NCBI RefSeq assembly: GCF_055900595.2
Contig: NZ_CM148325.1
Length of the DNA stretch: 64,000 nucleotides
Reading direction: 5' to 3' (one strand)
In this document: piece after piece, positions 16,228-50,723 of the stretch
How the letters are laid out: each line of letters begins with the position of its first letter
Position numbering within the stretch: position 1 is the first letter of the stretch
Notes under the pieces: model-generated
Databases searched by the model: none
The model's input: only the letters and a program-made list of their open reading frames with translations
Told to the model about the DNA's origin: nothing
Program-made: the position numbers and the translations under genes

Positions 16228-17184
16228 TCAATACCCCATGTTTTTCTTCTTCTCTAACTCTTCTTTTGCAGTATCAGGCAGGTAAAGGGTGGACTTGGTC
16301 AGGGTCAGCTTTTCAGGCATGGTGCCGTCTTTTTTATATTTCTCCAGCGCATCAAAAGCGGGGCCTGCCATGTTCGGCGTCAGTTCAACGCTGGCGTTCG
16401 CTTCGCCATCAATCATCGCTTTGTAGATGTCCGGCACGCCGTCGATAGAGCCTGTCAGGATATCTTTGCCCGGTTTCAGGCCCGCTTCTTTAATTGCCTG
16501 AATTGCACCAATCACCATGTCATCGTTATGGGCGTAAACCATGCAGATGTTTTTGCCGTTGTTTTCCGCTTTGATAAAGCTCTCCATCACTTCTTTGCCT
16601 TTGCTGCGGGTGAAGTCACCTGACTGCGAGCGGATAATTTTGATATTTGGCGCATTCTTAATGGCTTCGGCAAAGCCTTTCTTACGGTCAATGGCGACGC
16701 TGGCCCCAACGGTGCCCTGCAGCTCCACCACGTTGCATGGTTTGCCATTCACTTCTTTTACCAGCCAGTCACCGATCAATTTGCCTTCGAGGATGTTGTC
16801 GGCAGTGACGGTGGTCATATAGAGAGATTTGTCTTTCACATCGATGGAACGGTCAAGCAAGAAGACCGGGATTTCGGCATCTTTCGCCTCTTTTAATACC
16901 GGCTCCCAACCGGTCGCTACCACCGGAGCGATAAAGATCGCATCCACCCCTTGCGCGACGAAGGAACGTACCGCTTTAATCTGGTTTTCCTGCTTTTGCT
17001 GACCATCGGCAATTTTCAACGTAATTCCGCGCTTTTCGGCTTCACTTTTCGCCACATTGGTTTCTGCGGCGCGCCAGCCGGATTCCGATCCGACCTGCGA
17101 AAATCCTACGGTTAATGGAGCGGCCAACGCCATAGACGACATGGCTGCCGAGACTGCAGAGACTACAAGTAAGCGTTTCCACAT
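16228..17184 (-). CDS. ytfQ: Periplasmic sugar-binding protein (galactofuranose-binding)
   Basis: 318-aa ORF with a signal peptide and periplasmic binding protein fold; first gene of the ABC cluster. Confidence 0.9.
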   Translation of the reverse strand: MWKRLLVVSAVSAAMSSMALAAPLTVGFSQVGSESGWRAAETNVAKSEAEKRGITLKIADGQQKQENQIKAVRSFVAQGVDAIFIAPVVATGWEPVLKEAKDAEIPVFLLDRSIDVKDKSLYMTTVTADNILEGKLIGDWLVKEVNGKPCNVVELQGTVGASVAIDRKKGFAEAIKNAPNIKIIRSQSGDFTRSKGKEVMESFIKAENNGKNICMVYAHNDDMVIGAIQAIKEAGLKPGKDILTGSIDGVPDIYKAMIDGEANASVELTPNMAGPAFDALEKYKKDGTMPEKLTLTKSTLYLPDTAKEELEKKKNMGY

Positions 17185-17493: not shown

Positions 17494-18024
17494 ATGAGCT
17501 TACTCAACGTCCCTGCGGGTAAAGATCTGCCGGAAGACATCTACGTTGTTATTGAGATCCCGGCTAACGCAGATCCGATCAAATACGAAATCGACAAAGA
17601 GAGCGGCGCACTGTTCGTTGACCGCTTCATGTCCACTGCGATGTTCTATCCGTGCAACTACGGTTACATCAACCACACCCTGTCTCTGGACGGTGACCCG
17701 GTTGACGTACTGGTCCCGACTCCGTACCCGCTGCAGCCAGGTTCCGTGATTCGCTGCCGTCCGGTTGGCGTTCTGAAAATGACCGACGAAGCCGGTGAAG
17801 ATGCGAAACTGATTGCTGTTCCGCACACCAAGCTGAGCAAAGAATACGATCACATCAAAGACGTTAACGATCTGCCTGAACTGCTGAAAGCACAGATCGC
17901 TCACTTCTTCGAGCACTACAAAGACCTCGAAAAAGGCAAGTGGGTGAAAGTTGAAGGCTGGGAAAACGCAGAAGCCGCTAAAGCTGAAATCGTTGCCTCC
18001 TTCGAGCGCGCAAAGAATAAATAA
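17494..18024 (+). CDS. ppa: Inorganic pyrophosphatase
   Basis: 176-aa [35 protein letters not shown]; family I PPase. Confidence 0.9.
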
Positions 18025-18038
18025 GTTCTTCTAGTGCC

Positions 18039-18078
18039 ATAACCCTGAACGCCGGGCTTCGGTTAGTAAGGGTTTTTT
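18039..18078 (+). terminator. Rho-independent terminator downstream of ppa
   Basis: Stem AACCCT ... AGGGTT followed by a T6 run. Confidence 0.5.
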
Positions 18079-18372
18079 ATGCCCGCGATAAATAAACTCT
18101 CTATTCCCCTATCATTATTCTCAGCGCTTGCAAGGCTTGAACGGTAAGAACAAGCAAACACGACCACCATTTTGCTGTTCATAGCCGCTTGCTGGAAATT
18201 AGCCGACCTCACTCATTCTCACCGTTCAAAGCATGCCCCCGTTTTACCCCTACGTAATTGTGAACGCCAGCAGAGTTTTTTATGCGTTTACGGATATGGA
18301 AAGCGGCTCGGAGAGAAAAGCTAAAGATGGGGAAGTTACAAAAAAAATCGCGAGATACATCGCATAAAACAA

Positions 18373-18400
18373 CGCCACCCGAAGGTGGCGTGCTTTTATT
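18373..18400. terminator. Hairpin terminator downstream of ytfP, possibly bidirectional
   Basis: GCCACC-CGAA-GGTGGC stem flanked by A/T runs immediately after the ytfP stop. Confidence 0.45.
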
Positions 18401-18401
18401 A

Positions 18402-18743
18402 TTACTTATCCCTGTCTAACCAGTCGCCGCTTTCAATTAGCTTTAATCCATCGACGGGTCGTTGATAAACGTACATCCATGCACTCCCGTACGGCGTCTG
18501 AATCAACTGGCGCGCGTATTCACCGCCCCTGGTGCGCAAGGCATCAAGTTCGGCCAGCGTGGCGTTGTCAATACGATAAACTTCACCGTGTACTGTTCCG
18601 TTCCCCGGAACTGCGCCTGGATAGTGGCCCAGGCTATACAACTGGTAGTTATCGATACTGAAATCGCCCAGTAACTGGGCATTGGTCATCCAGTGACTGT
18701 TGCCTTGTTTGTGGCGTAAACTGCCGTAGACAAATATTCGCAT
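18402..18743 (-). CDS. ytfP: Gamma-glutamylcyclotransferase-family protein
   Basis: 113-aa ORF MRIFVYGSLRHKQGNSHW (AIG2/GGCT-like); directly downstream of tamB. Confidence 0.85.
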   Translation of the reverse strand: MRIFVYGSLRHKQGNSHWMTNAQLLGDFSIDNYQLYSLGHYPGAVPGNGTVHGEVYRIDNATLAELDALRTRGGEYARQLIQTPYGSAWMYVYQRPVDGLKLIESGDWLDRDK

Positions 18744-18745
18744 TG

Positions 18746-24297
<5,552 letters not shown>

Positions 24298-38563: not shown

Positions 38564-39194
38564 ATGAAGGGTCAACCAGAAGCCAGCTAAGGATCGTCTC
38601 TTTGATGACCTTACGCCTGGCTTCCAGTGCCTGCGGTGAAACCATACTGATGTGATAAACCAGGCCAAGCGTATGTTGGTTGATCAAATAATATCCTCCA
38701 AGAGCAGCAATATTAATATTCACCTGCAACGGGTCGATATCTGGCTTAAAAATATTGCGCCGTTTGCCTTCAGCTAATAATGACTCCATTAACTGTAAGT
38801 GTGCGTGGTTAATTTCTAAAAGGCGCTGTGATTTTGCATAATGCACCCCTTTACTCTGGTTTTCACTATGCACAATTTTTAAAAACCAGGGGTTAGCAAT
38901 GTAATAATCCCAGGTGAAATCGATAATTTTCTCAATGGCTTTTTGTGGCGGAAGACCTGAGAAATCAAGGGATTTTTCTTTTTGCCGAATATCATTCCAG
39001 GTATATTCCAGCACTTCGATAAATAAATTTTCTTTATTACCAAAGTGATGATAAACCGTCTGTTTACTGCACTCCGCGGCCTTGACGATATTATCGACTC
39101 TGGCCCCTTCGTAACCATATTCGGCAAATTCATTAACCGCACATAACAACAGCTTTTCCTTCAGGCTTTGTACGTTGCTGGTATCAAGATACAT
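38547..39194 (-). CDS. TetR/AcrR-family transcriptional regulator, divergent from the island operon
   Basis: N-terminal TetR HTH ([45 protein letters not shown]); ATG at 39194 favoured over the GTG at 39254; occupies the position of K-12 ytfA. Confidence 0.7.
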
Positions 39195-39299
39195 TCCGCT
39201 TCCCCACGTCTTCTTCGTGATGACTATCTTAACCCGATTTGTTAGAAGCTCCACTAAAATGGCTAAAAACTCGCAATTTCATCGGGTTATCAAATGCTC

Positions 39300-39315
39300 T
39301 GTGATCATTATCGCA
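39300..39315. promoter_or_regulatory. CRP-like site TGTGA-N6-TCGCA in the divergent promoter region
   Basis: One mismatch to the TGTGA-N6-TCACA consensus; read by eye. Confidence 0.3.
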
Positions 39316-39316
39316 T

Positions 39317-39338
39317 ATCAACCAACTAGATGGTTGAT
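39317..39338. promoter_or_regulatory. Perfect inverted repeat ATCAACCA-N6-TGGTTGAT; candidate operator for the TetR-family regulator
   Basis: 22-bp palindrome between the divergent regulator and SDR genes, about 70 bp upstream of the SDR start. Confidence 0.4.
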
Positions 39339-39405
39339 CTTTCTTGCCACACATTGCAAGCTAATCGTCACTTAAGGAAATAATATTCAAAAAGAGGGTT
39401 ATTGT

Positions 39406-40197
39406 ATGAAGTCAACACGTCCTGTTGCTGTCATCACTGGAGCCGCACGTGGTATTGGAAAGGGCTGTGCACTGGAACTTGCGCGTGGCGGATTTAATCT
39501 GCTGATTAATGATCGTCCGGATGCCGACAGCGTAGAAAAATTACATGCCACACAACAAGAATGTCTGGCGGAAGGCGTGGAAGTGATTTGCTTCCCTGCT
39601 GATGTTGGCGATCTCTCCCTTCATGAAGAGATGCTCGACGCGGCGCAAAACCAGTGGGGACGTCTGGACTGTCTACTCAACAACGCAGGCATTTCAGTGA
39701 AAAAACGCGGTGACCTCCTCGACCTCGAACCAGACAGCTTCGACCAAAACATTGCCATTAACACCCGTGCGCCGTTCTTCCTTGCTCAGGCATTCAGTAA
39801 GCGATTACTGGCACAGCCGAAACCGGAAGCAGAACTGCCGCACCGCTCGATTATTTTTGTCAGTTCCATAAACGCCATCATGCTGGCGATGAATCGCGGC
39901 GAATATACCATTGCCAAAACTGCCGTCTCCGCCGCAGCTCGCCTGTTTGCCGCTCGCCTTTGCAATGAACAAATTGGCGTTTATGAAGTGCGCCCTGGCC
40001 TAATCAAAACCGATATGACCATTCCGGCAACGGCTTATTACGACGAACTGATTGCTAAGGGGTTAGTGCCGTGGGGACGTTGGGGTTATCCGGCTGATAT
40101 TGCCTCAACGGTCCGCGCGATGGCGGAAGGCAAACTGATTTACACCTGTGGTCAGGCGGTCGCCATCGACGGCGGCTTAAGTATGCCGCGCTTCTGA
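39406..40197 (+). CDS. Short-chain dehydrogenase/reductase (SDR)
   Basis: 263-aa ORF with the TGAARGIGKG Rossmann motif; AAGAGGG Shine-Dalgarno upstream. Confidence 0.75.
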   Translation: MKSTRPVAVITGAARGIGKGCALELARGGFNLLINDRPDADSVEKLHATQQECLAEGVEVICFPADVGDLSLHEEMLDAAQNQWGRLDCLLNNAGISVKKRGDLLDLEPDSFDQNIAINTRAPFFLAQAFSKRLLAQPKPEAELPHRSIIFVSSINAIMLAMNRGEYTIAKTAVSAAARLFAARLCNEQIGVYEVRPGLIKTDMTIPATAYYDELIAKGLVPWGRWGYPADIASTVRAMAEGKLIYTCGQAVAIDGGLSMPRF

Positions 40198-40206
40198 GGC
40201 TGAATC

Positions 40207-41049
40207 ATGAGAGATCTGTTACAACGCCCGGATTTATTCAGTATCAATACTGCGACACTGGGCTATAAAACACCGCTACCTGCCATTATTGATGCCTGCG
40301 CCGCACGCGGTATTGGCGCGATTGCCCCCTGGCGCAGGGAGTTACAGGGTGAAGATCTCCAACAAATCGCCCGCCAGCTTGCTGCCAGTAACATGAGCGT
40401 TTCCGGTTTGTGCCGTAGCACCTATTACACCGCGCCGACGCTGACGGAACGCAAACTGGCGATTGATGATAACCGCCGGGCGCTGGACGACGCCGCTGTA
40501 CTAAACGCCGCCTGTTATATGCAGGTGGTTGGCGGTCTGCCAATGGGAACAAAAGATCTGTACGAAGCGCGGGAACAAGTGAAACAAGGGATTCGCCAGT
40601 TGCTGCCACATTCGAAAGATGTCGGCGTGCCAATTGCGCTGGAGCCGCTGCACCCGATGACAGCTGCCGATCGCTCTTGCCTGTGCACGTTACGTCAGGC
40701 GCTGGACTGGTGTGATGAACTCGATCCCGATGGGGAGTTTGGCCTCGGCGTGGCGGTAGATGTCTACCACGTTTGGTGGGATCCGGATCTCGCCAGTCAG
40801 ATCCTGCGTGCCGGAAAACGCATCCTCGCGTTTCATGTTTCCGACTGGCTGGTGCCAACCACCGATTTAGTCAATGACCGGGGAATGCCGGGAGATGGCG
40901 TAATCAATATTCCGTCTATTCGTCGCCAGGTAGAAAATGCCGGATTTAACGGTGCTGTGGAACTGGAAATTTTCTCACCGTACTGGTGGCAGCAAGATAT
41001 TAACAGCACGTTGGATATTAGCGTCGATCGCATCGCGCATTATTGCTAA
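40207..41049 (+). CDS. Sugar phosphate isomerase/epimerase-like TIM-barrel protein (xylose isomerase-like fold)
   Basis: 280-aa ORF whose length and motif pattern fit the xylose isomerase-like TIM barrel family; 9-bp gap after the SDR gene. Confidence 0.65.
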   Translation: MRDLLQRPDLFSINTATLGYKTPLPAIIDACAARGIGAIAPWRRELQGEDLQQIARQLAASNMSVSGLCRSTYYTAPTLTERKLAIDDNRRALDDAAVLNAACYMQVVGGLPMGTKDLYEAREQVKQGIRQLLPHSKDVGVPIALEPLHPMTAADRSCLCTLRQALDWCDELDPDGEFGLGVAVDVYHVWWDPDLASQILRAGKRILAFHVSDWLVPTTDLVNDRGMPGDGVINIPSIRRQVENAGFNGAVELEIFSPYWWQQDINSTLDISVDRIAHYC

Positions 41050-41052
41050 GGA

Positions 41053-41835
41053 ATGATCATGAGTGACCAACCCGTTCTGTTCAGCAGAGCGGCGGCTTCC
41101 TGCCGCCTGACATTGAACCGTGAAGATAAATGTCATGCTATTAATGAAGAAATGATCGAATCTCTCGACCATTATTTAAATGAAATTGAAAACGACACCA
41201 CATTACGATTAGTCGAATTAACGGCAACCGGCGATAAATTCTTTTGTGCGGGCGGCGATATTAAATCGTGGTCGGCCTATTCGCCATTAGATATGGGCAG
41301 AAAATGGATTAAACGCGGCAATGACGTTTTTAATCGCCTGCGCAACTTACCCCAATTAACGGTTGCGAATCTCAACGGTCATACCATCGGCGGCGGTATT
41401 GAACTTGCCTTGTGCTGCGATATTCGTATTGCCCGCCCCAGTGCGAAATTCTCTAATCCGGAAGTAATGCTCGGCATGGTGCCTGGCTGGATGGGCATTG
41501 AACGCGTGCTTAATCAGGTCGGTCCGGTGGTCGGTCGCCAGATGCTGATGCTGGGTAAACGCCTGACGGCGCAGGAAGCTCAGGCGGCGAATTTAATTGA
41601 TGAAGTGGTAGAAAAAGAACAGGTGGAAAGCTGGATGGCGAATCAGTTAGCGCAGCTGGAAAAATGCGGTCCGGTGGCGCTCGCACATATCAAGCAACTG
41701 ATTCTGGCTCTAGAAAATAAACATGCTGATTACCCGCACCAGTTACTGGCTGGATTAATGTCCGCCACTCAGGATTGCCAGCAGGCGACGCGCGCATTTG
41801 CCGAAAAAAGTAGCGTGAGCTTCCAAAATCAATAA
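41053..41835 (+). CDS. Enoyl-CoA hydratase/isomerase (crotonase) family protein
   Basis: 260-aa ORF with FFCAGGDIKSW and GHTIGGGIELALCCD crotonase motifs. Confidence 0.75.
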   Translation: MIMSDQPVLFSRAAASCRLTLNREDKCHAINEEMIESLDHYLNEIENDTTLRLVELTATGDKFFCAGGDIKSWSAYSPLDMGRKWIKRGNDVFNRLRNLPQLTVANLNGHTIGGGIELALCCDIRIARPSAKFSNPEVMLGMVPGWMGIERVLNQVGPVVGRQMLMLGKRLTAQEAQAANLIDEVVEKEQVESWMANQLAQLEKCGPVALAHIKQLILALENKHADYPHQLLAGLMSATQDCQQATRAFAEKSSVSFQNQ

Positions 41836-41844
41836 GGAAATTGT

Positions 41845-43386
41845 ATGCGTAAGATAACAACCGCCGAGACACTGGCGGCGCAAATTCAGGACGGCGCAAC
41901 CATTGCCATTAGCGGTAATGGCGGCGGCATGGTGGAAGCGGACCATATTCTGGCTGCTATTGAAGCGCGTTTCCTGCAAACCGGACACCCGCGCGATCTG
42001 ACATTAATCCACTCACTGGGCATTGGCGATCGCGACTGCAAAGGCACTAACCGCTTCGCTCATGCAGAGATGCTCAAACGCATCATTGCCGGACATTTTA
42101 CCTGGTCGCCCAAGATGCAGGATCTGGTGAAAAACAATGCTATTGAAGCCTACTGCTTCCCTGGTGGCGTAATTCAGGCACTGCTGCGGGAGATCGGTGC
42201 CGGACGTCCAGGGCTTTTTACCCACGTTGGGCTGGGATCGTTTGTTGATCCGCGCAACGGCGGCGGTAAGTCGAACGCTAGCAGCACTGAGGATCTGGTA
42301 GAACTGATTGAAATCGACGGTGAAACCAAACTTCGTTATCGCCCCTTCAAAGTGGACTACGCGATTTTGCGTGGCACTTATGCCGATCCGCGTGGCAACG
42401 TCAGCCTCGAAGAAGAGGCGATTGATATGGATAGCTATTCCATGGCGCTGGCAGCACACAACAGCGGCGGCAAAGTGTTCGTACAGGTGCGCGATGTGCT
42501 GGAAGCTGGTGCCATTGAACCACGCCGGGTCAAATTACCGGGCATTCTGGTTGATGGCATCGTTGAACACCGCGAACAACCGCAAACCTATCTTGGCGGT
42601 TACGACCTGACCATCAGCGGTCAGCATCGCCGTCTAAGTTCTAACGACGCAATTGAACTGGTTAGTCATCCGGTGCGCCGCCTGATTGCCCGTCGGGCAG
42701 CACGCGAACTGGTGGCTGGCGCTTCAACCAACTTTGGCTTTGGCATTCCCGGCGGCATTCCTGGGGTTGCACTGCGCGAAGGCGTGCCTTATCAAAGTTT
42801 ATGGCTGAGCGTAGAACAGGGTGTACATAACGGCATGATGCTGGATGATGCTCTGTTCGGCTGCGCCCGCAACGCCGATGCCATTATTCCATCACTCGAT
42901 CAATTCGAATTCTACAGTGGCGGAGGGATCGATATCACCTTCCTCGGCATGGGAGAGATGGATCAGTACGGTAACGTCAACGTCTCCCATCTCAATGGCA
43001 ATCTCATTGGCCCCGGCGGATTTCTCGAAATTGCGCAAAACGCCCGTAAAGTGGTGTTCTGCGGCACGTTCGACGCCAAAGGTAGCACGATTGATGTAAC
43101 ACCAGATGGCTTGCATATCGCCCAGTCAGGTCAAATCCCTAAACTGGTTACCCAGGTGGAAAAAATCACTTTTAGCGCCGCCTACGCACAGCAAAGCGGT
43201 CAGGAAGTGTTGTATATCACTGAACGTGCAGTATTCCAGTTAACAGCAGAAGGCGTTGAATTAATTGAAATCGCACCAGGTGTGGAGATTGAGCGCGACA
43301 TTCTGCCGCATATGGCCTTCCGTCCAATTATCAATCAGCCACGCCTGATGGAAAGTAGCCTGTTTACGCCGATGGAGGATGCATGA
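41845..43386 (+). CDS. CoA-transferase family protein (fused alpha/beta, family I-like)
   Basis: 513-aa ORF with Gly-rich motifs typical of acyl-CoA:acetate/3-ketoacid CoA transferases and citrate lyase alpha-like proteins; 4-bp overlap with the next gene. Confidence 0.65.
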   Translation: MRKITTAETLAAQIQDGATIAISGNGGGMVEADHILAAIEARFLQTGHPRDLTLIHSLGIGDRDCKGTNRFAHAEMLKRIIAGHFTWSPKMQDLVKNNAIEAYCFPGGVIQALLREIGAGRPGLFTHVGLGSFVDPRNGGGKSNASSTEDLVELIEIDGETKLRYRPFKVDYAILRGTYADPRGNVSLEEEAIDMDSYSMALAAHNSGGKVFVQVRDVLEAGAIEPRRVKLPGILVDGIVEHREQPQTYLGGYDLTISGQHRRLSSNDAIELVSHPVRRLIARRAARELVAGASTNFGFGIPGGIPGVALREGVPYQSLWLSVEQGVHNGMMLDDALFGCARNADAIIPSLDQFEFYSGGGIDITFLGMGEMDQYGNVNVSHLNGNLIGPGGFLEIAQNARKVVFCGTFDAKGSTIDVTPDGLHIAQSGQIPKLVTQVEKITFSAAYAQQSGQEVLYITERAVFQLTAEGVELIEIAPGVEIERDILPHMAFRPIINQPRLMESSLFTPMEDA

Positions 43387-45455
43387 GTCAGCTTGATGAC
43401 ACCCTCCTTGATGCGCTGACGCACGTCACTTTCCCGAAGGGTTTTGCACAGGCAGAACCCGCATGGGTTGTCACGGTAGACGGTGTTGATTACCCACTCT
43501 GGCAAACAGATGCCCTGGTAGTCGGCAGTGGTGCAGCCGGGCTGCGTGCAGCTGTGGAACTTAAGCGCCGCCAGCAAAATGTGCTGATCGCCACCGCCGG
43601 GTTATATATGGGGACATCGGCATGTTCTGGTTCCGATAAACAGACGCTGTTTACCGCCGCTACCGCGGGCAACGGCGATAACTTCGCCAAACTGGCAGAG
43701 GCACTGGCGAGCGGCGGCGCAATGGATCACGATACCGCTTATGTTGAAGCGGTTGGTTCCCTGCACACTCTTGGCGGGTTGCAATATCTTGGTCTGGAAT
43801 TACCGGAAGATCGCTATGGCGCAATTCTTCGTTATCAAACCGACCATGACGAAGCCGGGCGAGCAACCTCGTGTGGGCCGCGGACCTCAAGGTTAATGGT
43901 GAAAGTACTGCTGGAAGAAGTACAGCGTCTCGCCATTCCAGTGTTGACCAGTGCAACAGTAATTAAACTGCTGCATCAGCGTGACGAAAACGGTGAAGAC
44001 CGCGTGGCGGGGGCAATCCTCGCGACCGGTCATCGTGCCCATAACCCATGGGGGCTGGCAATTGTGACTGCGCCCAATGTGGTACTGGCAACAGGAGGGC
44101 CTGGCGAGCTTTATCGTGACAGTGTGTACCCACACAAATGTTTCGGCTCGCTGGGGCTGGCGCTGGAAGAAGGTCTGACGTTAACGAATCTGACCGAAAG
44201 CCAGTTTGGTATAGGCACGCCGCGCAGCACCTTTCCGTGGAATTTATCCGGGACTTATGTACAGGTGATCCCATACATCTATTCGGTGGATGCCGGGGGC
44301 AACGAGTATAACTTCCTCGCAGATTACTATCGCACCACCCAGGAGCTGGCTTCAAACATCTTCCGTAAAGGCTATCAGTGGCCGTTTCACGCCACACGAG
44401 TGATGGATTTTGGCTCCAGCTTGTTAGATATGGCAGTAGCGCAAGAGCAGCAATCAGGACGTCAGGTATTTATGGATTTCAATCGCAATCCTGAACCTGT
44501 GCCGGGTGACCTGCCGTTCTCATTAGATCGACTGGACGACGACGTTCGCGCGTATCTGGAAAATAACGACGCTCTGGCACCATCGCCCATCGAACGACTG
44601 CAACGAATGAATCCGCTGTCTATCTCGCTGTATAAGATGCACGGTTACGATCTCACCACGCAGCCATTGCAGTTTGCCATGAATAATCAGCATATGAATG
44701 GCGGCATTGAAGTGGATATCTGGGGGCAAACCTCCCTGTCCGGCTGTTTCGCCGTGGGGGAAGTTGCTGGCACACACGGCGTCACTCGCCCTGGTGGTGC
44801 GGCATTGAATGCCGGGCAGGTTTTTGCTGTTCGTCTGGCACGTTTTATTGGTTGCACGCAAAAACGTAATATTGATGGAGATATAGCACAGCTGGTAGCT
44901 CCGGCACTGGCTTCTATAAGAGAGATCATTACTCAGGCGCACGATAACGGGACCGGGATGCCGTTGTCGGTTGTGAGGGAAAAAATTCAGGCACGAATGT
45001 CTGACCATGCGGGATTTATTTGTCATGCCGATAAAGTCCGACGCGCCACTCGTGATGCCCTGCTATTGAACGAATTTGTGCAACGGCATGGATTGGCAAT
45101 CAAACATGTGGGTGAAGTTGCCGAGCTGTTTATGTGGCGGCATATGGCGCTGACTTCTGCCGCGGTATTAACACAATTAACGCATTATATTGATGCTGGT
45201 GGTGGTAGCCGTGGGGCGCGTATGGTTATTGATCCACAAGGCAAATGCCTACCACAAACTCGTCGCGGCGCAAAAGAAGAATGGCGTTTTCGCTCTGAAC
45301 TCGCTGAAGACAAAAATCACAAATTAACAATTCAATATTCGCAAGGTTCTTTTATTACCGAAGTAAAGTCTTTACGTATGCAACCGTGTATTAACGGTAT
45401 TTACTTTGAAAAAAACTGGCCAGACTTTTTAAAGGGAGACATTTACACACAGTAA
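43383..45455 (+). CDS. FAD-dependent oxidoreductase of the succinate dehydrogenase/fumarate reductase/L-aspartate oxidase flavoprotein family, with a C-terminal extension
   Basis: 690-aa ORF with N-terminal VVGSGAAGLRAA dinucleotide-binding motif and C-terminal GEVAGTHGVTRPGGAALNAG motif. Confidence 0.7.
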   Translation: MSQLDDTLLDALTHVTFPKGFAQAEPAWVVTVDGVDYPLWQTDALVVGSGAAGLRAAVELKRRQQNVLIATAGLYMGTSACSGSDKQTLFTAATAGNGDNFAKLAEALASGGAMDHDTAYVEAVGSLHTLGGLQYLGLELPEDRYGAILRYQTDHDEAGRATSCGPRTSRLMVKVLLEEVQRLAIPVLTSATVIKLLHQRDENGEDRVAGAILATGHRAHNPWGLAIVTAPNVVLATGGPGELYRDSVYPHKCFGSLGLALEEGLTLTNLTESQFGIGTPRSTFPWNLSGTYVQVIPYIYSVDAGGNEYNFLADYYRTTQELASNIFRKGYQWPFHATRVMDFGSSLLDMAVAQEQQSGRQVFMDFNRNPEPVPGDLPFSLDRLDDDVRAYLENNDALAPSPIERLQRMNPLSISLYKMHGYDLTTQPLQFAMNNQHMNGGIEVDIWGQTSLSGCFAVGEVAGTHGVTRPGGAALNAGQVFAVRLARFIGCTQKRNIDGDIAQLVAPALASIREIITQAHDNGTGMPLSVVREKIQARMSDHAGFICHADKVRRATRDALLLNEFVQRHGLAIKHVGEVAELFMWRHMALTSAAVLTQLTHYIDAGGGSRGARMVIDPQGKCLPQTRRGAKEEWRFRSELAEDKNHKLTIQYSQGSFITEVKSLRMQPCINGIYFEKNWPDFLKGDIYTQ

Positions 45456-45547
45456 TTTTCAATATTTACTCTGTACCTGATTTTTATTGCCTATTACATG
45501 GAAATACCAACAACCAGGGTTTATTAATATAATTAAAAGGTTTAAAA

Positions 45548-46825
45548 ATGAATAAAATAAAGAATTATCGATGGCATATGATTGCCCTCGTATGCTTTAT
45601 CACTGTAATCAATTATCTGGACAGAACGGCGTTAGGTATTGCGGCTCCAACGATTATGGAGACAACCGGAATAACCAAAGAACAATATTCATGGATTGTC
45701 AGTGCATTCCAGTTGGCCTATACATTGGGGCAACCGGTAATGGGCTTCTTTATTGATACCGTGGGTCTGAAGTTAAGTTTTGCGATATGTGCCGCAATCT
45801 GGGGCCTGGCGACAATGGGGCATGCCTTGACAGGAACATGGTCAGGTCTGGCATTTATGCGCGCCCTGATGGGTTTCAGCGAAGCATCGGCAATTCCTGC
45901 GGGTGTAAAAACCGCATCAACATGGTTCCCGGCAAAAGAGCGTGGCGTGGCGACAGGTGTTTTCAATATGGGCACCTCACTCGGCGCGATGCTTGCTCCA
46001 CCGTTGATTGCCTGGTGCATTATGTTTCATAGCTGGCAATTTGCGTTTATTGTCTCAGGTAGCCTTGCTTTACTCGCGGCTTTATTTTGGTTCTTTTGTT
46101 ATAAAGATCCAAAAGATGCTAAACGCCTTTCTGATGAAGAGCGCCACTATATTGAGTCTGGGCAAGAACAGCATCTTAAAACAGATAAGAAAGAAAAAAC
46201 GTCAATCAAGCATATCCTCAGCCAACGTAATTTCTGGGGGATTGGCATCGCGCGTTTTCTCGCTGACCCGGCATGGGGAACCATTAACTTCTGGGTACCG
46301 ATTTTCTTCGTCGAAACGCTGCATTTTAGCCTGAAAGAAATTGCCATGTTCGTCTGGCTGCCTTTCCTGCTGGGCGATCTCGGCTGTTTAGCCAGTGGTT
46401 TTGTCGCGAAGTTCTTCCACGATCGCGGCGTGAGTTTAATTAACTCACGAAGAATTACCTTCACTATTGCAGCCGTCATTATGATGACGATTGGTCTGGT
46501 GAGTATTGTCGAAAATCCCTACATCGCCGTATTACTGATTAGCATTGGCGCATTCTCGCATCAATGTCTTTCTACTGTTGCAGCAACTCTGGGCGGTGAC
46601 CTATTCAAAAAAGACGAAGTAGCTACCGCTGTGGGTATGGCAGGAGCCTGTGCATGGAGCGGTCAGTTGATTTTCAACCTGTTTATCGGGGCATTCGTTC
46701 ACATTATTGGCTTCGCGCCGTTCTTTATTGCCCTGGCTTTCTTTGACATTATTGGTGCTATTGCGTTGTGGACGCTTATCAAAGTTAAAGATGAAGAACC
46801 ACAAGTACAGTTAGCTACCCACTAA
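45548..46825 (+). CDS. MFS transporter, anion:cation symporter (ACS) family, ExuT/GudP-like (acidic sugar or organic acid uptake)
   Basis: 425-aa 12-TM ORF whose N-terminus (NYLDRTALGIAAPTIME) resembles hexuronate/glucarate transporters. Confidence 0.8.
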   Translation: MNKIKNYRWHMIALVCFITVINYLDRTALGIAAPTIMETTGITKEQYSWIVSAFQLAYTLGQPVMGFFIDTVGLKLSFAICAAIWGLATMGHALTGTWSGLAFMRALMGFSEASAIPAGVKTASTWFPAKERGVATGVFNMGTSLGAMLAPPLIAWCIMFHSWQFAFIVSGSLALLAALFWFFCYKDPKDAKRLSDEERHYIESGQEQHLKTDKKEKTSIKHILSQRNFWGIGIARFLADPAWGTINFWVPIFFVETLHFSLKEIAMFVWLPFLLGDLGCLASGFVAKFFHDRGVSLINSRRITFTIAAVIMMTIGLVSIVENPYIAVLLISIGAFSHQCLSTVAATLGGDLFKKDEVATAVGMAGACAWSGQLIFNLFIGAFVHIIGFAPFFIALAFFDIIGAIALWTLIKVKDEEPQVQLATH

Positions 46826-47094
46826 TTATTTTAAATAAAAACGCTATAATTGAGGTTATGGCGTTTTTAAAGAAGCTTGAGTTATCGAACCTAGCTTACC
46901 AACGCGTTGTCAGTCATCTCCCCCCTCCCTGGTGCATCGTTATATCCGTGATGAGCGATTTTTGATATTAATATCTTTCACCATCCGCTATTTTCACCAC
47001 TTCAGAAAACAAACTTATTTTTATTAATATCAATTCTTTTTCTTTGAACATTCAACTGCGATATTTGTAAAAATATTAAACAGGCAACAATAAA

Positions 47095-50068: not shown

Positions 50069-50075
50069 GCGCCAT

Positions 50076-50627
50076 TCAACGAATAACGACTTCCGGATCC
50101 GGCTCATGAGTAATGCGATTACGTAAGTCGCGGCGCATAATTTCTATTATCCAGAACCAGAAAATGTGCCCAAGGATTTCAGATGCATATTCGTCAAAAG
50201 GCAATTGAGTGAGCGGCGGCGTTAAATTCAGCGCCGGGCAAAATATACCGTGGACTGCCACTGTCACAATAAGCCCTGCTAATATCCCCTGCCATAATTT
50301 CACTTTCGGGAAAATTTCCGCGACCACACAATACCCTATCGCAAAAACCAGTGAGAAGATGATATGCGTCACCATCACCGGGTTGATAATATGTTCCGAG
50401 AATGTATACACAGTTTGGGTTGGGTCGATCCCTAAATAATCCCGTAGAAAGATATACGGCGGATTAAACTCATCGCGACCACCGGAAAATGTGCGCGGTG
50501 GCAAGGGAACTTCCGCTCCCCATTTAACAAATGCTGAAATAATTCCTGAAAGTACACCCACAAGTAACGCAACGCCATAACGGCGACGCTGCGGATCCGT
50601 TCTGACAAACAATCCGTTGATAGCCAT
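50076..50627 (-). CDS. YagU/DUF1440-family inner membrane protein
   Basis: 183-aa ORF with RRRYG...[15 protein letters not shown]...[12 protein letters not shown]...RRDLRNRIT, resembling YagU as I recall it; I do not recall a gene here in K-12. Confidence 0.65.
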
Positions 50628-50723
50628 AAAAACACCTGTTGTTTATACGATTTTTTAACTGAAACGGCCCCGGAATCAGACCAATTACATCCCGCAGGAG
50701 GTAATAATTCCGGGGCGCACTGC

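Follow-up and report, generated by a model that had tools for sequence, protein, structure and literature searches.

The chpBS locus of E. coli K-12 (also ChpBI-ChpBK) is a type II toxin-antitoxin (TA) system of the MazEF/PemIK family (Masuda et al. 1993, as cited in PMC7167474). Decay of chromosomal TA loci within a species has been described as well (a 2009 study; Fiedoruk et al. 2015), and in the summary of that work given in PMC7167474 such loci keep a conserved location, being intact in some strains and degraded by deletions or nonsense mutations in others. The chpB and chpS genes themselves are accessory in E. coli isolates, with pan-genome and PCR surveys finding them in part of the isolates only (PMC6096937, PMC11059956). 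In their passages on these genes, the surveys score presence or absence, and the content of the site in negative strains is not described there. Variable presence and decay of chromosomal TA modules in E. coli are already described, and what we report here is ordinary gene decay; the added detail is the exact structure of a relic, its frequency of 43% and its age across species. Our literature search, which did not cover Fiedoruk 2015, Ramisetty and Santhosh 2016 or Mine 2009, returned nothing specific on a chpB remnant.

We analyzed the spacer between ppa and ytfP in a 64-kb stretch of DNA (hereafter the window), and we are highly confident that this spacer is a decayed allele of a chpS-chpB (MazEF-family, type II) cassette, not an unoccupied site. 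Like K-12 chpBS, it has the same ytfP-ppa position, and it keeps chpB nt 19-145, the last 5 nt of chpB and the chpS leader. Unlike K-12 chpBS, it is without antitoxin gene and operator, 67 of the 116 toxin codons are gone, frameshifts and stops interrupt the rest, and it is not a functional member of the family. The locus shares with the decaying chromosomal TA loci, as these are summarised in PMC7167474, the conserved location and the coexistence of intact and degraded versions. It differs from the loci in that summary in that one structural relic allele covers all chpB-lacking complete genomes and is common to E. albertii, so that we see an old two-allele polymorphism, not many recent independent lesions. 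Integration hotspots between core genes offer a further comparison: ytfP and ppa are conserved and the cargo between them is diverse by taxon, but nothing is inserted in the window, where the polymorphism comes from loss.

Remains of a chpS-chpB cassette in the ppa-ytfP spacer

The order ytfQ-ppa-ytfP-tamB in the window is that of K-12 with the orientation reversed (Table 1). In K-12 MG1655, chpS (b4224) and chpB (b4225) sit between ytfP and ppa in an 886-bp spacer, as the original prediction had stated. The window spacer (18025-18401) measures 377 bp and contains no ORF of at least 60 aa, the longest ORFs touching it being of 50, 49, 45 and 44 aa, which agrees with the first description of it. 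No intact ChpS, ChpB, MazE or MazF homologue was found by tblastn anywhere in the 64-kb window.

Table 1. Features of the ppa-ytfP spacer and its neighbors, in window coordinates
Feature	Position	Strand	Detail
ytfQ	16228-17184	-	neighbor on the ppa side
ppa (inorganic pyrophosphatase), left flanking core gene	17494-18024	+	176-aa ORF; ppa label in matching E. coli records
ppa terminator-like hairpin (AACCCU...AGGGUU) followed by U6	18041-18080	+	fold dG -12.4
chpB relic	18101-18230	-	18106-18230 = chpB nt 19-145; 18101-18105 = last 5 nt of chpB
9-nt junction filler GGGGCATGC (- strand), source unassignable	18231-18239	-	alignments; ~312 bp gone here
Remnant of chpS upstream leader (distal ~160 bp of the 211-bp K-12 ytfP-chpS spacer)	18240-18371	-	blastn
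Third small hairpin with T8, inside the leader remnant	18349-18364	-	
Bidirectional intrinsic terminator of ytfP (ACGCCACC-CGAA-GGTGGCGT)	18372-18391	both	dG -24.5 and -22.9; z -4.6 and -5.6
ytfP (gamma-glutamylcyclotransferase family), right flanking core gene	18402-18743	-	113-aa ORF; ytfP label in matching records
tamB	18746-22525	-	neighbor on the ytfP side

The spacer had been said to hold just two terminator hairpins. Both exist, but a chpB fragment, the chpS leader and the third hairpin with its T8 run are present too. The ytfP terminator shows the GC-rich stem-loop and U run of a Rho-independent terminator on both strands, and a close sequence variant of it is kept in Enterobacter and Kluyvera. 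The hairpin behind ppa consists of a stem and U6 with a weak folding energy, no better than that of shuffled sequences; it is nearly invariant across Escherichia alleles and delimits the chpSB cassette in Enterobacter and Kluyvera. Where chpSB is absent in these two genera, nothing but the two terminators and a short stretch of variable sequence is found, and where it is present, a leader of ~160 bp, chpS and chpB lie exactly between the terminators. Because the leader is absent from the empty Enterobacter and Kluyvera sites, we count it as part of the cassette, and the cassette-derived part of the window spacer, between the two terminators, amounts to about 270 of the 377 bp.

Alignment of the K-12 ytfP-ppa interval with the window by blastn yielded a chpB match at 18132-18230 (76.2% over 101 nt, E 1.9e-13), which local alignment extended to 71.7% over 127 columns, pairing window positions 18230-18106 with chpB nt 19-145. 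The end of chpB abuts this relic body and reads AATAG in the window and AATAA in K-12. The relic is interrupted by two frameshifts of 1 nt each and has stops in every frame; tblastn recovered ChpB aa 15-35 from it with an in-frame stop. Queried against 28 Gb of E. coli genomes, the relic segment gave E 1e-8, and its matches were relics or chpB only; with one place per E. coli genome, a repeat family is not the source of the chpB similarity at 18101-18230. The possibility of a ChpB-like ORF below the length cutoff, raised at the outset, is borne out as far as the presence of ChpB-like sequence goes, but this is a dead fragment, not an ORF.

On the two sides of the relic, 18240-18391 is 85.5% and the ppa-side flank (18025-18107) 89.5% identical to K-12 (both by blastn). 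No ChpS or MazE match was found in the spacer by tblastn, and alignment shows that the entire chpS gene is deleted. In K-12, Enterobacter and Kluyvera, the operator palindrome GTTATAC-N3-GTATAAC lies shortly before chpS; the window spacer does not contain it, and no promoter-like site was found in the leader and relic region. The correct placement of the relic was obtained by affine-gap global alignment, blastn and a four-way alignment; a clean deletion at the site, as suggested by default MAFFT, was an artefact in which the relic had been misplaced against chpS.

Of the components of a functional chpBS module, the window contains chpB homology at the orthologous position, and it has no toxin ORF (~110-116 aa, PemK/MazF fold), no antitoxin ORF (ChpS/MazE type, ~83 aa) and no promoter-operator. 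What it does present are the marks of a decayed TA locus, namely disabling lesions at the position of the intact module and both alleles segregating in the species. The proposal that the strain is without the module is correct for the 64-kb window, whose ppa-ytfP spacer has neither chpS nor the operator and retains of chpB only a frameshifted piece of ~130 nt. Since promoter and operator are missing, the relic is most likely silent, drifting DNA.

This structure can be explained by two deletions in an ancestral cassette of ~750 bp, which would have comprised leader, chpS and chpB between the ytfP and ppa terminators. Deletion 1 would have removed chpB nt 146-346, i.e., 201 bp in frame, with the loss of 67 of 116 codons. 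In K-12 chpB, TGGTGG occurs at nt 140-145 and again at nt 341-346, precisely the edges of this deletion, which may have arisen through replication slippage or microhomology-mediated deletion between these direct repeats. Direct repeats or insertion scars had been suggested as something to look for at the locus; repeats are present, in K-12, at the edges of the chpB deletion, but none flank the chpSB cassette, and a comparison of occupied with empty sites revealed neither flanking repeats nor an integrase.

Deletion 2 would have exchanged ~312 bp (the proximal leader with operator and promoter, all of chpS, and chpB nt 1-18) for the 9-nt filler, with ~130 nt of chpB and ~130 nt of leader as the leftovers. 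A GGTAAA microhomology considered for this second junction does not fit the 9-nt filler and was discarded. Addiction logic suggests that the toxin was disabled first, upon which the antitoxin would have become dispensable. The locus, with its in-frame toxin deletion between short direct repeats and its antitoxin gene gone, shows that a TA module can be lost by deletion despite addiction.

Frequency and age of the two alleles

We determined the frequency of the relic in 5426 complete E. coli genomes by blastn with 11-nt words and a 141-nt relic query, which matched 5425 of them. The relic allele (full-length matches at 80% identity or more) was present in 2325 genomes, with no annotated feature among the matches listed, and the chpB allele in 3100 genomes at about 76% identity, located on annotated chpB among the matches listed. 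A megablast search with K-12 chpSB likewise returned 3100 genomes. The allele shares in complete E. coli genomes are ~57% for chpSB and ~43% for the relic, and a second chpSB-like copy is nearly absent (5427 places in 5425 genomes). Of the 3101 chpSB matches in the E. coli genome collection, three were located on plasmids, not chromosomes. With megablast, the 141-nt query recovered relics in only 1652 genomes, an undercount that arises because divergent relic alleles (e.g., those of ST95-32 and SaT040) are missed.

These counts bear on the simplest alternative, an empty, never-occupied site in which the 377 bp would be ordinary intergenic DNA with two terminators. Such a site would have no ORF of at least 60 aa, as found, and spacers of 100-170 bp without chpSB do occur in many other Enterobacteriaceae. 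The window spacer, however, is more than 200 bp longer than these, with the excess made up of chpB and chpS leader homology, and no clean empty ppa-ytfP site exists among the complete E. coli genomes, 5425 of 5426 having either chpB or the relic. We consider a site that was never occupied scarcely conceivable, and the earlier suggestion that the strain never acquired the module is contradicted by the same census and by the wreck of the cassette in the spacer. In E. coli, essentially one ancestral cassette occupies the locus in two allelic forms, and the locus is not one where TA modules inserted repeatedly. By extension, chpBS-negative E. coli are not naive, in that they carry a fossil of fixed structure that goes unlabelled by standard annotation among the matches listed, which matters for the scoring of presence and absence, e.g., in GWAS and PCR surveys.

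E. coli HH45 (locus L006, 2198-2709) has the relic structure with a core that is 100% identical to K-12 chpB nt ~19-119, and its spacer also has an inserted GC-rich stretch of ~135 bp. It is the only relic seen with an annotation (a partial PemK/MazF pseudogene), owing to the K-12-like patch. The mosaic may stem from gene conversion between intact and relic alleles or from an assembly artefact.

Relic alleles with identical boundaries and colinear sequence were found in the window, ST95-32, SaT040, four further E. coli strains, E. albertii and 'E. coli' SCPM-O-B-8794, which represents a species of its own in the genome collection; the BS-01 relic has an extra small deletion at the leader-side junction. 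Colinearity and shared boundaries argue for a single decay event, and the occurrence of the same relic with the same boundaries in E. albertii indicates that the decay is old. The four most divergent relics (window, ST95-32, SCPM-O-B-8794 and E. albertii) are 6-17% apart from each other and 24-28% from chpB, and the relic is nearer to Escherichia chpB than to the chpB of other genera.

E. whittamii and the representatives of three further Escherichia species have intact chpSB as well. Between Escherichia species, it is 91-94% identical, compared to 91-97% for tamB, ytfP and ppa. The divergence of chpSB (6-9% from K-12) is similar to that of its flanks, suggesting long vertical residence and giving no sign of a recent import of the intact module. 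The leaders form mosaics that do not group by allele type, as exemplified by the leader of the relic-bearing SCPM-O-B-8794, which is 94.5% identical to that of the chpSB-bearing E1V33. Judged from these comparisons, both alleles are old, common to several Escherichia species and shuffled by recombination.

The same data can be arranged into another history, one that concerns the past of the locus and not the content of the window, in which the relic is ancestral in E. coli proper and K-12-like chpSB was re-imported from other Escherichia via homologous recombination in ytfP and ppa. A relic that is common to E. albertii, and that stands 24-28% from chpB as against 6-17% among relics, would be very old, consistent with such an ancestral state, and leaders not sorted by allele type are compatible with it. 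The HH45 relic with its 100% K-12 chpB core would add a case of gene conversion, if the spacer assembly is sound. Yet K-12 chpSB is 6-9% from that of other Escherichia species, matching its flanks and leaving a recent import unsupported, and a long-lived recombining polymorphism explains the presence of both alleles in several Escherichia species equally well. We regard re-import as possible but unlikely.

It appears improbable that selection maintains this ancient trans-species polymorphism, with the cost of the toxin balanced by a benefit such as phage or plasmid exclusion, or that the chpB hairpin described below is kept as a functional element. Old, cross-species alleles at intermediate frequency fit balancing selection or exaptation and neutral persistence with recombination alike.

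The hairpin within the relic

The - strand of 18099-18239 (chpB sense) is predicted to form a long hairpin of -47.9 kcal/mol with z -2.9, compared to z -0.8 for the + strand. Its stem contains many G-U pairs, a pairing available to the - strand alone. An equivalent hairpin (-53 kcal/mol, z -2.2) is predicted for K-12 chpB mRNA nt ~19-117 (locus L001, 2211-2309). The hairpin is thus already a feature of intact chpB mRNA, which suggests that it was inherited and did not newly evolve in the relic. In the 5' third of K-12 chpB mRNA, the UUUGAACGGGGAG... arm pairs with ...CUCUCCGUUCAAG, and neither Enterobacter nor Kluyvera chpB conserves these arms.

A strand-specific, G-U-rich fold with one deletion endpoint at the base of its stem could indicate that the chpB piece was exapted, i.e., kept as a structured RNA or DNA element such as an sRNA, a signal for recombination or replication, or an insulator that separates the convergent transcripts of ppa and ytfP. 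The pattern of divergence can be cited in its favor, as the hairpin segment has diverged by 6-12%, the relic tail by 8-29% and the leader by 9-20%, such that the hairpin part is 2-3 times less diverged than tail and leader, which strict neutrality does not predict. However, the rate of the hairpin segment is about that of the third codon positions of ytfP and ppa, with tail and leader being faster, and the fold itself was inherited from intact chpB mRNA. Compensatory changes were absent from all 35 pairs across a 10-allele alignment (covariation term +0.15), and the E. albertii relic has two pairs broken and folds no better than shuffled sequences (z 0.05). A promoter-like site is lacking as noted above, and an Rfam scan of 17900-18500 returned no family, only a chance S15-leader match inside ppa (E 0.5, below gathering). 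Together, these data make exaptation very improbable, and we retain the reading of the relic as decayed, probably drifting DNA.

Other cargo at the site and the rest of the window

We next consider the spacer beyond E. coli, using a species scan with YtfP (one genome per species) that provided 80 Enterobacteriaceae loci, E. fergusonii and S. enterica subsp. enterica not being among them. In the 69 loci with ppa in the fetched sequence, spacer length ranged from 99 bp to 5.1 kb. Many Citrobacter, Klebsiella, Kluyvera, Enterobacter and Raoultella species, as well as S. enterica diarizonae, had short spacers of ~100-170 bp. At the same offset, the chpSB module was found in Escherichia, Enterobacter asburiae, Pseudocitrobacter, a Kluyvera genomospecies, a Lelliottia species and isolate RIT691, with ChpB identities to K-12 of 64-97% across these loci.

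Independent wrecks of the module were observed in Citrobacter sedlakii (L029, 4638-4770), where a C-terminal ChpB fragment (aa 63-107) remains in a 347-bp spacer, and in Enterobacter cloacae DSM 26481 (L035, 8100-8168), where a ChpS fragment adjoins ppa behind 1.7 kb of other cargo.

Unrelated cargo in the spacer comprises a TonB-dependent receptor with YncE, an Hcp-domain protein with a long C-terminal extension, a GGDEF/EAL protein with CatA, a NadS-type HTH gene and an unannotated chemoreceptor-like ORF. Among E. coli, the interval was not one colinear match in 227 of 5425 genomes (4%), two of which were examined. In E. coli Z1323MEC0001 (L004, 4987-8896), the ytfP terminator is the junction with a P2-like prophage (integrase, Cox); the match ends at query position 896, corresponding to window position 18389. 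In E. coli N50 (L005, 5043-8537), an island with beta-glucoside PTS, glycoside hydrolase and LicT genes follows right after ppa and displaces the relic by ~4.7 kb.

The same core genes thus flank unrelated cargo in different genomes, as is characteristic of a hotspot, and the ppa-ytfP spacer is a variable site that is not specific to TA modules. The original prediction of a variable TA insertion hotspot holds as to the variability of the spacer, but most of the cargo is not of the TA type, and the E. coli polymorphism consists of two alleles of one cassette.

Over ~60 kb of colinear sequence, the window is 95.3% identical to K-12, and over ~8 kb around the locus it is ~95.1% identical to 'Escherichia sp. 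MOD1-EC7003'. Leader and flank haplotypes that differ by 10-15% from K-12 had seemed unusually deep, but this is an expected level, given that the whole window is only 95.3% identical. At 99% or above, the locus finds matches in only 8-15 of the 5426 complete E. coli genomes, N96 and 2020CK-00188 ranking first. The source of the window is a divergent E. coli lineage that is seldom sequenced, perhaps a cryptic clade.

Further differences from K-12 lie elsewhere in the window. An island of ~8 kb at the ytfA/yjfZ junction (38950-46926) is absent from K-12. By the look of their sequences, its ORFs putatively encode an SDR-type oxidoreductase, a sugar-phosphate isomerase-like protein, an enoyl-CoA hydratase-like protein, a 513-aa CoA-transferase-like protein, a 690-aa flavoprotein and an MFS transporter, and the ORF of a TetR-like regulator straddles the left edge of the island. 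Between yjfY and ulaF, 592 bp (50070-50661) are without a K-12 counterpart and include a 183-aa, membrane-protein-like ORF (50076-50627, - strand). Finally, the segment 6969-7393 measures 425 bp, compared to 39 bp in K-12, and adjoins a match to the K-12 cybC pseudogene, such that the window may contain a more complete cybC region.
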